Source of the DNA: Eledone cirrhosa
Taxonomy: Eukaryota
Assembly (NCBI GenBank): GCA_964016885.1
Contig: OZ024746.1
Coordinates: forward strand, 48,050,001 to 48,114,000
Length of the DNA: 64,000 nt
Direction of reading: 5' to 3'
The translations under genes were made by a program, and so were the position numbers. The notes below the pieces were generated by a model that worked only from the letters and a program-made list of their open reading frames with translations, was not told the DNA's origin and did no database searches. This document shows positions 18,248 to 53,374 of the stretch, in pieces; position 1 is the stretch's first letter; each line of letters opens with the position of its first letter.

Positions 18248-18259
18248 TCCTTTTGGTGG
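18248..18259 (-). CDS. NCX: Candidate 12-nt NCX cassette microexon (ATKR)
   Basis: cttattctgttttag|CCACCAAAAGGA|gtaagc; phase 1-1; gives ..ATKR-S-SGSDN. Confidence 0.55.
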
Positions 18260-18438
18260 CTAAAACAGAATAAGCTAAAAGCTTATAGATTTTATGCTTA
18301 TGATCATCAACTGATGAAGCTCATTTGCATACAGAGCAAAAAGATGGCAGGCTTGAATTATTATATATATGTCTGAGAGATAGAGAGAGTGTGTGTCCAT
18401 TTTTATGTCATTGATTGTATTTATCTTCGAAAACTTAC

Positions 18439-18442
18439 TAGT
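18439..18442 (-). other. Candidate 4-nt microexon (ACTA), frame-shifting
   Basis: tttattttttgctcttttgttag|ACTA|gtaagt: long polypyrimidine tract with TGC and a perfect donor, but length is not a multiple of 3. Confidence 0.3.
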
Positions 18443-19253
18443 CTAACAAAAGAGCAAAAAAATAAAGAATCGATAAAATACAGACTTGAAAAAATAACTA
18501 TTGGCCAGTTTAATAACTGAAATAAAAGAACACAAACACACCCGACACAGAGAGAGAGAGAGAGAGAGAGAGAGAGAGAGAGAGAGATGTACGTGTGTAT
18601 ATACTTTAAGCATGAATCTAATAAGACTGTATGTATGTACGTATGTATATATGTATGGAGAGAGAGAGAGAGAGATTTCAAAATAAAAATATTTATGCCA
18701 TTTGTTAATAGCAACATGAGACCAAAAATGGGATGATGATAATCTTTATCATACGTTTGCTCAATCTGTGCTGACTTATCAAACAACAACAATAACAATT
18801 TGTTGATTGTGAATCCGTAGAAACAGTTTTTAAAACAAGATGAGTTGAATAATTTCTCTTTCTCTTTCTTAGATGTGAGTGCCAAGACATATTTGCACCC
18901 TATATGGGGTGGTGAGATGTTCAGGGCTGAAGTATTTGATGGGCTCTGAGAAAGGAAGCCCAAACTTTATGCTTCAACCTCTTGACTATGTGAAAAATGT
19001 AATGTAGCTGTGAAAGAACATTAAGGATGGGATTTATAGACAATGACACACACATACAAGCTCATATTCAGAATAAGTTGAATGTTTACTTAGGAATTTC
19101 CGGAGTCAGTAAAACCTATTAACCCTTTTGATACCAAACTGCCTGAAACTGTCCCCGTTGCTATGATGCAAAACTGTTTGTCTTAAAGTGTTTATTGTTA
19201 ATCTAAAAACTTTGTTATGTTCTAAAATATCAACTTAATAATGAGAAAGTTTA

Positions 19254-20935
19254 TCTATATATCTAAAACAGAGAATGTCTGTCTGTCCGACTCCCTAAAA
19301 CTCGAGAACCACCCAACCGAGTTTTAAAACTTTACACATGTAATAGTTATGGTCGTGTGACTGTTTTGAGCAAAAAATATTTCAAATTTTCAATGCATTA
19401 GGTGCCAGTTAGCGATCTCTCTGTCTTTCTTAGTCTGTCTTTTTAGATAGATACATAGCTATAACGTCGCACCCTTATAATATCTGTCTGTATGTCTGAC
19501 TGTCTGCATTACCATATTATGACAGAGTGTGTGTGTGTGTGTGTGTGTGTATATAATCATCATCATCTTCGTTTAACGTCCATTTTCCACGCTAGCATGG
19601 GTTATATATATATACTGATTCATCTGAATTATTGAGCCCTCTGTCGCTCATTTCGAATATTGTTTATCGTGAACTCGTGCGCCGATTTTTCGATACTCGA
19701 TCTTTCTAATATTTTTAGCTCTGGACATAGCTATCCACCAGTTAATTTTATTGCTCATTTTTTGTCGATTCTATTGAGTGATGAATAGCTCTTGTTTTAT
19801 TTTAACATGTCTATTGAGCACTCTTATTCGATATGTGTATTTCCACATTTCCTCGAATAGTTTTCGCGGATGTAGAGGTTATCTCCCTTGTCGAAATCCA
19901 TGTGCGTATTTCGCTTGTGGTTAGCCCCTTATCCGCTAGGAAAAAGCTCGTTGATGAAGTAAACTCCATTCCTCTTGCTCTAGTAGCCTTATATATTTAT
20001 ATGTGAGCTGATAGAGTACAGTCTAAGGATTTACAGAAACCCAAGAAGCTAGATTTAACACCTTTCTAGTGGGTCCGGGTATGATTTTACATTCATTTAA
20101 ATTATTGATGCATTGTTTTATTGATATTTTTTATCTGTTTGTCCCGAATCTTCTATTATCGATTTTTTATCGTATGGTTGATTGTAGACTTGTTCTATGT
20201 GTGACGGTATTTTAACGATAGTTATAGCTCTGATTCATCTGAATTATTGAGCCCTCTGCCGCTCATTTCGAATATTGTTTATCGTGAACTCGTGCGCCGA
20301 TTTTTCGATACTCGATCTTTCTAATATATATATATATATATATATAGTGTGTAACGTTTTTCGAAATATTTCGAAATATTTCGAAATATTTACTTCTGCG
20401 TTCAGATTGATTTTTTTAGTTTCAGAAGATCCCGTTAAGAGTGAAAGCAGCGATTCTTCGCTTAAACTTTAATCTGTTATCCTTATATATATATATAATT
20501 ATATATTCGTGTACAGATATTTTTGTATACCCAATAACAAAATATAAACAAACGTATTTATTTCACGAGGCTCGATAAGGATAAATATATATCAAATATA
20601 TAAGAACCCTAGAGCAAATAATCTCATTGCTGTTGAGGCAGAAGGGGATATACACGATTGACTGAAGAAGGACGAGATTGTGTTTGTAGTACGACCAACG
20701 GCTGCTATTTACACCAACAGCAGCAAAAACAACAACAAAAAAGAGAGGGGGTGCTATTACATGCTTTTGAAAAATCTTAATGGAAAATTATTTGCCTATT
20801 CACCCAAGGCGACTTCACTTTTTATTAGGACTTCTGCATCAATTGGTGAACATACGACAAAACTGTTTCAGAAAGGAGGGATAAACATGCCAATCTATGT
20901 TTAGAATCCCGAGCAATGCCGGGCCATTCTGTTAG
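19254..20935 (+). mobile_element. Non-autonomous Helitron with nested insertions
   Basis: 5' a|TCTATATATCTAAAAC; 3' cccgagcaatgccggg..TTAG|t. Internal ~97-bp direct repeat at about 19615-19710 and 20231-20326. Confidence 0.75.
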
Positions 20936-51339: not shown

Positions 51340-51871
51340 TCTTAATATGAGTAAAAGTGAATGTATGTATGCAGGTTTTAAGTTGTAAGCTATATAGTTT
51401 AGCTGAAATTTTGCATAGAGCCTCAACTTCAAGAAGGCCATAGCTATAAGAATTTGTCTGAAATTTGTTATTTTTAACTCCAATGAGAAAGACTATGAAT
51501 ATTGCAAACTGCCAAGCACTACAATAGACTTTGGAAAAAAATACTGATAAAAAAATAAAATTATTTGGAATAATTATGTAAATTAGTATTGTAATTTTGA
51601 AAAAGAGTATGCTTTCTGAGAAAACATAAAAATTTATAAAGGCAAAATTTTATTTTAGATTCTACATTTATTTGAATATTTTCTGTTCATTTTCATGAAT
51701 CTCAATTTGAACCATGGCTTGGGTGCAATAATTCTGAAAGAATGAAACATTTCTGGACAAACTAAAGATTTTTCAGAATCTCTTTAAAGTAATGTTTCTA
51801 AAATATGTGAAGTAATATTATATTCATTTGAAGAATTAATAAACCTAGGCAAGGCCCGGAATGGCTGCTAG
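51340..51871 (+). mobile_element. Degenerate non-autonomous Helitron
   Basis: 5' a|TCTTAATATGAGTAAAAG..gtatgtatg; 3' cctaggcaaggcccgg..CTAG|t. Confidence 0.6.
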
Positions 51872-53228
51872 TAGCTAACAATAACATATATCAATGGTAA
51901 TTTCCTGTAATCATGAATCTTTCATTGGTGAAAAATTGCATTGAGTAGCAATTATGGAAATAAGCTGGAAATTTAGCAACATAACATAACCCGTCATCTA
52001 CTCAAATCCTGTTCACTGAAGCAGAAACAAAATATTTATAGCCAACTGCCTGCAATAGAATTGCTGTAAATTTCTTTCACAAAATATTTTGGGATTTAAG
52101 ACATCAGATTTAATTTGATTTGGTGAAGGTTAAGTGGCTAGCCATAATTTGATTTGGTGAAGGTTAAATGGCTAGCTATAATGTGTTAGATAAATAAAGG
52201 CGAAAGTAATTGCCAAGGCTTCCACAAGCTTTATGAGACCATGAATCTGCATCTAAAAAATTCCTCTTAGGTGCAGACCTGGGAAAGGATGGAATTTCTT
52301 TTATACTTAGAAGGCCAGCAGTTATCCAGGTAAACAAGTCTCCCCACTCCACACCATCGACGTTAGTCCAATAAAGTTTGGCACTGGTGTTGTTAGAAGC
52401 ATCGTCATTAGAATGATAAGAGCCAGAACAGATACTGCAAGGTATCCCAGCCAACACTGCCAATTAACGTTTTCTAGAAGGTGGTCTATTTATTGACACT
52501 GAAGAGAGGAAAAACACAGTTAGCCTCAGTGAGATTTAAACTCAGAGCACAGGTAATCAGAATACTGCCAATTATTCTATTTAACACACTAATAATACTG
52601 CCAGTTTGCTGTCTAATCGTCATAATATCTACTACAATAGCCAGAGAAAAAAAATCTGAGGAAACTAATGTTCATTGGTAAAAATCATATAAAATGTTAC
52701 AAAATCTCTATACTCATACTTTTTCACTTTATGTTAATTAAGTTTTTGGTCACAAAAGAACCTTGATTTAAGCATCTGCTTAATAATGAGTACTACATCT
52801 GTTTCACATATGATGAGGGCACACTGTGATATAACTCAAAAGCAACAACTCTGACGGTTGCTGGTTAGTTACATAAGCACTACAAGTATAGTAGAGGAAA
52901 AAGAATATAAAAAAAGCAAAAGAACAAAAAAAAAAAAAAGGAATAAAAAACCAAGAATCTCGTAAAAGCACCCTTATATATATATAGTCATCCTATCTTA
53001 TGAACATTAAATTCATTAGGCGCTATTTATATATATATACACACAGACAAGCACACCTATACCTATGTGACTATGCTAGAAGAGGTTTGGAAGGCTCTGT
53101 CAAAATGTCCATATGTGGCACCAATAAAAGCTAGCAACTAACCTACCTCTAGCTTCCATATTTTCTTTCTTTTTTTTTTGTAATCAGATAAGTACCAAAA
53201 GAAATAACAACAACATCATATCTGTTAC

Positions 53229-53270
53229 CTGTCATCTCTGCCATATTTAGTCCAGCACGCATAGCTATTT
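53229..53270 (-). CDS. Candidate 42-nt (or 36-nt) NCX cassette exon (EIAMRAGLNMAEMT)
   Basis: Very strong pyrimidine tract ctccttctccctttctctttctctatattag followed by tataag and aaatag (three AGs 6 nt apart). Donor ACAG|gtaaca. The 42- and 36-nt forms are open in phase 1-1; the 48-nt form starts GTA TAA (stop). Confidence 0.5.
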
Positions 53271-53374
53271 CTTATACTAATATAGAGAAAGAGAAAGGGA
53301 GAAGGAGTTTGAAGTGCATAAGTACTATTAGTGGTAAACTGATACATAGTGCATTGCAATATTTTCACACATGA

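Follow-up and report, generated by a model that had tools for sequence, protein, structure and literature searches.

In vertebrate NCX1 (SLC8A1), the frame-neutral cassette exons C-F follow exon A, are used in combinations and add up to 41 residues (PMC2408596). They lie in the unfolded FG loop of the CBD2 domain, beside the Ca3-Ca4 sites of CBD1, and when cassettes are added, CBD1 affinity is higher and Ca2+ release slower; five residues of the fly exchanger CALX occupy the same loop, these residues and C-F alike alter the Ca2+ affinity of the CBDs, and the alternative residues of CALX1.1 and CALX1.2 change Ca2+ regulation (PMC9820601). Here we analyse a 64,000-nt stretch of Eledone cirrhosa DNA (assembly GCA_964016885.1, contig OZ024746.1, positions 48,050,001 to 48,114,000; hereafter the window), which carries part of an octopod NCX gene and, within one very long intron, a set of cassette exons. 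Like C-F, these cassettes follow exon A, preserve the frame and enter the unfolded CBD2 FG loop in combinations; unlike C-F, which are not tandem paralogues and to which they have no sequence similarity, they can bring up to 190 residues into the octopod loop. Also unlike vertebrate NCX1, no mutually exclusive A/B pair is found among 24 cephalopod proteins, which have one exon-A sequence throughout. The locus resembles Drosophila CALX1.1/CALX1.2 in placing alternative residues at the equal FG-loop spot (DELAA versus STHYP, structures 3RB5 and 3RB7), whereas the fly has a five-residue substitution instead of additive cassettes and no large insert. It is also like the NCX of molluscs and a nemertean, whose RefSeq isoforms (Mytilus, Dreissena, Mercenaria, pectinids, Magallana, Haliotis, Lineus) have one or two short phase-1 cassettes at the equal junction, but theirs are 4-15 residues long and unrelated in sequence, except for the peptide DTDSANS of one protein described below. 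Squid NCX-SQ1 (O02196) is an orthologue and represents the all-skipped loop form. The RefSeq models XP_036359785/6 (O. sinensis X1/X2) and XP_052824690 (O. bimaculoides X1) already hold an optional Ala, the seven-residue exon and the three large exons discussed here, by automatic annotation only; beyond the squid negative, we found no literature on cephalopod NCX splice variants, these models included, in a search of the open-access literature.

The window is microsatellite-rich animal DNA of 32.6% GC and holds only two constitutive NCX (SLC8) exons, both on the minus strand. The window's exons are 82-97% identical to cephalopod NCX; exon 12636..12757 is closer to Argonauta and Octopus proteins than to the named squid and cuttlefish proteins (82-84%), and the O. 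sinensis isoform has the Pfam domains Calx-beta (twice), Na_Ca_ex and Na_Ca_ex_C. Within the 64-kb window we found neither the preceding exon, which ends in DDEEYEK...KKP, nor the KLPSC exon that comes next downstream. As no DDEEYEK exon lies inside it, the intron interval exceeds 51 kb, in agreement with an earlier sequence-only reading of this DNA, which had found no IDDEEYEK-type exon in the window and had put the interval above 50 kb. Our best explanation, to which we assign a probability of about 0.72 as a whole, is that we are dealing with the ancient phase-1 intron which follows ‘exon A’ in octopod NCX and encodes the unstructured CBD2 FG loop, and that it holds three switchable units. 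The first would be a 3-nt exon worth one residue; the second, a coleoid-wide 21-nt exon worth seven; the third, three tandemly duplicated exons of about 60 codons, adding some 180 Ser-rich residues, so far octopod-only, and going in or out mostly as a whole. Together they would give about five to eight loop forms. The array is real but smaller than proposed: relatives confirm the 21-nt exon and the three large ones, a 3-nt exon is probable, and three further candidates are probably chance. The elements of this reading are, in order of transcription:

48151..48153, minus strand: probable 3-nt microexon CAG in a NAG-NAG-GT layout, giving a single residue, which in Octopus is the Ala that follows KKP; score 9.1, second of 175 sense AG-NNN-GT sites
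45007..45027, minus strand: 21-nt cassette microexon encoding (D)TDSAHS; 8/8 match to O. sinensis isoforms; score 11.3
35745..35915, minus strand: large cassette E1 (57 codons in 171 nt); identity 48-49/56 with the X1 models of O. sinensis and O. bimaculoides; resembles E2 at DNA level (z=5.4)
29489..29680, minus strand: large cassette E2 (64 codons in 192 nt) with an RKIS motif; 52-53/63 identical; similarity to E3 z=7.2 (DNA) and 6.5 (protein)
23492..23671, minus strand: large cassette E3 (60 codons in 180 nt) with an RKIS motif, perhaps serving as a terminal exon too; 49-50/59 identical
12636..12757, minus strand: constitutive exon encoding the end of the FG loop, the FG helix and CBD2 strand G; 85-88% identity to octopod NCX proteins (tblastn)
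9461..9560, minus strand: constitutive exon SVVDKLLKKAN...EAITVNA; 97% identity to O. sinensis
4577..4579, minus strand: probable 3-nt microexon AAG, supplying the Glu of NA[E]GDDD at a second variable site; score 14.9, first of 175 sense sites

Twenty-four cephalopod proteins spanning the site were compared, 11 of them octopod (six O. sinensis, three O. bimaculoides, one O. vulgaris, one Argonauta) and 13 decapod-type (three Sepia models, squid NCX-SQ1 and nine unnamed assembled-transcript proteins); as the listing of cluster members covered no more than 20 proteins, isoform counts are a lower bound and others may exist. Splice sites were scored with a simple hand-made acceptor and donor matrix built from generic frequencies, not octopus-trained. 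The antisense strand and 20 local Markov resamples over the 51-kb interval, restricted to open phase-1 segments of at most 90 nt, served as chance controls. Six protein-confirmed exons score 7.6-15.9 on this scale and have AG-free zones of 25-122 nt.

The position of the inserts in the fold is that of an FG-loop cassette. Aligned to human NCX1 with phmmer, the long O. sinensis isoform matches over residues 18-611 and 810-1092, and the insert between them, at the place of exons C-F, is unaligned; in an AlphaFold model (67-row alignment) pLDDT is below 50 over residues 612-816, between CBD2 strand F and the FG helix and strand G. Inclusion and skipping of the 21-nt exon, of Ala and of the large block are each represented in annotated or assembled isoforms of relatives. 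That the cassettes have no sequence similarity to C-F, as the sequence-only reading held, agrees with the unaligned insert, and for the same reason we set aside the possibility that they are orthologues of the vertebrate exons. Its idea of a convergent parallel to C-F stands for the cassette sequences; it does not stand for the host intron, which has the same position and phase 1 in other molluscs and a nemertean, and the parallel is not octopus-specific.

Best documented among the short units is the 21-nt exon. Its seven-residue peptide is included in 12 of the 24 proteins and skipped in the other 12, both states occurring among octopods and among decapod-type cephalopods, where 5 of 13 proteins carry it. 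Microexons of the eMIC/SRRM4 type are described as 3-27 nt long, with a long AG-free zone, a UGC near the 3' splice site and a strong branch point (PMC8797185); 45007..45027 has such features, with an AG-free zone of 122 nt, a UGC at -16 and CTRAY at -107. As judged from the proteins of relatives, it is a real, coleoid-wide cassette exon. An acidic motif, D-x-D-S-[G/A], comes from this exon in cephalopods and is found in 17 of 60 distinct non-cephalopod loops, versus a mean of 0.3 and a maximum of 3 in shuffles. In the unnamed protein P0037 (nearest gastropod-type NCX), DTDSANS stands right after KKGS, with 6/7 identity to the 21-nt exon (4/2000 shuffles); the presence of this peptide at the junction suggests that the exon may predate cephalopods.

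The distinctive part of the locus is the octopod insert, 182 residues long, probably disordered and so far seen in octopods only. The three large exons had been proposed as paralogues, a claim that their DNA similarity bears out. They map by tblastn, in order and serially, to O. sinensis X1/X2 and O. bimaculoides X1, with 83-88% identity, close to the level of a constitutive exon (34/40), and with in-frame indels only. DNA similarity, given above for the neighbouring pairs, is z=1.8 for E1-E3, and the first half of E1 is diverged and has no RKIS. The introns between them measure 5.8-6.1 kb. E1-E3 occur all together in 3 of the 24 proteins, are all absent from 21 and occur partially in none; all three are joined in each of the 3 block-bearing models, and not one paralogue per transcript as mutually exclusive splicing would have it. 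No fourth paralogous exon was found in the window, where the next DNA match (E=1.3) falls on the splice sites of the 21-nt exon. E2 and E3 each carry an RKIS motif, conserved in all three species, and Ser makes up 37 of the 178 window-encoded block residues. RKIS is a PKA-type motif, so that the block may, speculatively, add kinase control; PKA phosphorylation of a scallop NCX has reportedly been described, in a report that we did not find and do not use. As a side observation, TCAG closes the 21-nt exon as well as each of E1-E3, whose GTCAG donors are also found at exon 9461..9560.

Compared with the total span of 59-112 residues in 71 non-cephalopod loops, the octopod insert is by far the largest among the loops examined. 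A HMMER search of 1.84 billion representatives for block homologues outside Octopus gave two matches, O. bimaculoides X1 itself and a low-complexity Thr/Ser repeat protein; none was found among shorter proteins, there was no usable Atlas match, and the 180-residue block is in none of the compared mollusc and nemertean NCX loops. ‘Octopod-only’ is nevertheless provisional, because decapod sampling is thin. An inverted pair (14063-14257 / 36437-36632, 196 nt, 95% identical) brackets E1-E3 and might loop the block out or provide substrates for editing, although its placement is probably chance: the pair belongs to a high-copy repeat of about 190 nt, about 12 copies of which, in either orientation, are found in the window. 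We do not count it as evidence that RNA pairing leads to skipping of the block, since there are 66 inverted matches in all and this one repeat supplies many of them.

The smallest units concern single residues. In O. sinensis X3-X6, an optional Ala follows KKP, before either the seven-residue exon or the constitutive exon, and Ala is present in 7 of 10 Octopus proteins. In phase 1, this Ala requires three extra bases, C-N-G, ahead of two different exons. Neither of the two acceptors that follow in the window has a NAGNAG, so that the residue is most simply explained by a separate 3-nt exon; 48151..48153 is the sole C-N-G site having a strong donor. At the second site, an optional Glu, present or absent in both octopod and decapod-type proteins, requires A-A/G-G after exon 9461..9560. 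The best of 201 antisense AG-NNN-GT sites scores 2.7, versus 14.9 and 9.1 for the two sense sites, and the bases, order and position of both sites agree with the optional Ala and Glu of Octopus isoforms. We conclude that 48151..48153 and 4577..4579 are probably 3-nt exons, overlooked by the sequence-only reading; a weaker alternative source of the second-site Glu is 8985-8987 (AGG, minus strand). Both candidates lack eMIC-type features, with no UGC within 30 nt. Thr stands at the Ala position in all 13 decapod-type proteins, which cannot tell whether the same 3-nt exon supplies it. A cross-species microexon study reportedly included Octopus and may list these exons in its supplements.

Both 3-nt sites also present the recursive-splice motif NAG-NAG-GT. 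At a recursive, or zero-nucleotide, splice site, AG/GT serves as acceptor and then as donor, with a sawtooth nascent-RNA profile or lariats as its trace; the second AG of the layout, if used, would yield such a zero-length splice, which we offer as an idea only. The second variable site adjoins the KLPSC cysteine, which is palmitoylated in NCX1 (C739) and conserved in squid (PMC4608915). Short cassettes are found at this site, before KLPSC, in Mytilus, Haliotis, Dreissena, oysters and Lineus as well. Models of O. bimaculoides (P0104/P0106, C-terminus) and Sepia (P0009/P0022) have a second-site segment of about 20 residues with a common KGF; none was seen in window positions 1-9460 among the matches listed, and the segment may sit beyond the window's start.

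Four short cassettes had been named by the sequence-only reading, and all four are indeed open phase-1 AG..GT segments of the minus strand, 42 (or 36), 72, 21 and 12 nt long. As exons, the 21-nt segment holds up and the other three do not:

53229..53270, minus strand: 42/36-nt candidate, not supported, probably a pseudo-exon; in 0/24 proteins; score 5.2 (36-nt form -0.5); AG-free zone 4 nt
46124..46195, minus strand: 72-nt candidate, not supported; in 0/24 proteins; donor 0.9, total score 4.7; AG-free zone 12 nt
18248..18259, minus strand: 12-nt candidate, not supported; in 0/24 proteins; total score 5.5; AG-free zone 13 nt

Each of the 24 cephalopod loops is fully explained by other pieces, and the best ungapped matches of the candidate peptides among 149 loops are 4/13 and 7/23. 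Their scores are those of chance: the values of the 42-, 72- and 12-nt candidates are equalled or exceeded by 11, 12 and 9 sense sites, 6, 6 and 5 antisense sites, and 7.0, 8.4 and 6.1 sites in the Markov resamples (sd 2.3-2.8). We therefore reject all three as exons and regard them as most likely chance pseudo-exons, absence from relatives being no proof for Eledone. The 42-nt segment is the best of them, with CTAAT at -61, a fair donor and a pyrimidine tract. Two other open phase-1 segments of the minus strand, 38793-38897 and 42373-42417, score higher than the rejected three (10.6 and 9.0) and are in no protein; the former shows small differences near its acceptor in contigs of sequencing runs. 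Three such runs, from one sample, behaved as genomic DNA over 35500-53320, with 30/30 bins covered and no difference inside candidate exons; they contained no splice-type joints in this interval and are possibly the assembly's source, not expression evidence. In metagenomes, a pattern scan for orthologous DNA returned nothing, and an E3 query gave 594 pattern matches, none of them confirmed.

How many loop forms does the array generate? Five are represented among the 11 octopod proteins (written as Ala/seven-residue exon/block: 111, 110, 010, 100 and 000), that is, 5 of 8 if the block acts as a unit and 5 of 32 if its exons are free. The proposal of at least seven freely combining cassettes, giving tens to 128 variants, can appeal to segments that are all open, in phase 1 and multiples of three, to the branch-point-like CTAAT and pyrimidine tract of the 42-nt candidate, and to independent assortment of the 3-nt and 21-nt units, for which O. 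sinensis shows 4/4 combinations, and of two cassettes in Mytilus, Dreissena and Lineus; moreover, the annotations of relatives would not include exons that are rare or peculiar to one species. Three of the seven candidates and any partial block are, however, missing from all 24 proteins, those candidates score at chance level while the unannotated 38793-38897 scores higher, and mammalian NCX1 is described as having five abundant variants of 32 possible (PMC2408596). We thus consider free combination very improbable. Partial block forms may occur, given predicted models from two species, but 128 forms are without support, and the locus is not a Dscam-like diversity generator.

Two other readings concern the block itself. 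E1-E3 could form a variable or mutually exclusive cluster, with one to three exons per tissue, the models with all three being the longest chains built by the annotation pipeline. The exons are paralogous, none of them shifts the frame, mutual exclusion is common among tandem duplicates (PMC9013439), only two independent species models exist, and introns of 5.8-6.1 kb do not force joint use. Set against this, two independent annotations join E1-E2-E3 serially, no single exon or pair is seen, and the divergence of the first half of E1 (no RKIS; E1-E3 z<2) fits serial addition better than substitution; we find a variable cluster rather unlikely. Alternatively, the block might mainly yield a truncated protein, E3 becoming terminal through read-through and intronic polyadenylation, with loss of CBD2 strand G and the C-terminal membrane half. 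Reading through the E3 donor, window positions 23471-23491 give seven residues, GQFMADF, then a stop, and O. bimaculoides X1 ends after E3 with GQFKVKF and a stop, at the same length, suggesting that E3 may sometimes be terminal; an AATAAA lies 320 nt downstream (~23170, minus strand). But O. sinensis X1/X2 are full length, with E3 spliced to the constitutive exon, the DNA is AT-rich and has AATAAA about as far behind E1 and behind the 21-nt exon, and the O. bimaculoides locus is in fragments, with a separate 223-residue model for its 3' part. Truncation as the main outcome is improbable on these grounds.

Several points weigh against the reading that we prefer, an intron with three switchable units of which the block is one. 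All proteins with the block are predicted models, three in number and drawn from just two species; P0107 and P0108 are alike except at the second site, and O. bimaculoides X1 stops after E3 without rejoining. Rare combinations are under-represented in models built from short reads, and the frequency of mutual exclusion among tandem duplicates, cited above, counts here too. The splice score is crude and weak alone, as one antisense site reaches the 11.3 of the 21-nt exon and two reach 9.1. Low pLDDT is weak evidence of disorder, because 3 of the 67 alignment rows hold the insert. The AG-free zones of the 3-nt candidates are short (11 nt for 48151..48153, 19 nt for 4577..4579), like those of the rejected candidates; the true Ala exon could sit past base 64000, and Glu could derive from a NAGNAG at the next exon, outside the window. 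Finally, the squid report describes nine reverse-transcription PCR clones from optic lobe and stellate ganglion, all of one form, with no splice variants (PMC2217150). These neural clones do not contain the seven-residue exon, which argues against its neural inclusion in squid.

If the array is spliced in Eledone as its relatives' isoforms suggest, the inserts would most likely adjust how CBD1 and CBD2 are coupled and, through this, Ca2+ regulation, differently from tissue to tissue, by analogy with C-F and CALX1.1/1.2. The large block would add a disordered arm with two conserved RKIS sites, probably for kinase or partner control. A bolder scenario, speculative and on balance unlikely, is that an octopod tandem triplication created a phospho-regulatory CBD2 arm of 180 residues, switched tissue-specifically as one unit and controlled by PKA through the two RKIS sites, while the NAG-NAG-GT sites supply single-residue variants as 3-nt exons or act as zero-nucleotide recursive points in a very long intron.

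The host intron has a wider history. At its junction the flanking residues switch as phase 1 predicts, between E and K and between G and R in Mytilus, between D and N and between G and S in Dreissena, and also in Lineus. Unrelated cassettes occupy this one junction in mussels, clams, scallops, oysters, abalone and a nemertean, indicating repeated cassette birth in one orthologous intron, which makes it a bilaterian hot spot for independent cassette birth. On these data coleoids do splice the CBD2 loop, although the squid cloning paper on the classic NCX preparation reported no variants in nervous tissue; four of the five supported elements were already inside the automatic RefSeq models of relatives, and the candidate 3-nt exons now have exact coordinates. 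The octopod insert offers a ready test of how long the FG loop can become before CBD1-CBD2 coupling changes.

Near the window's end lie a 200-N assembly gap (~62900-63100) and a long inverted duplication (60695-62597), where exons could be hidden. On the minus strand, 55023-56186 is a reverse-transcriptase frame with a PHD-like stretch, and ~63200-63650 holds a second fragment whose translation resembles reverse transcriptase, both being remnants of LINE retrotransposons in the intron. A 577-codon frame at 57036-58769, also on the minus strand, combines STPR repeats with a PIF1-like helicase and is a Helitron-like remnant.

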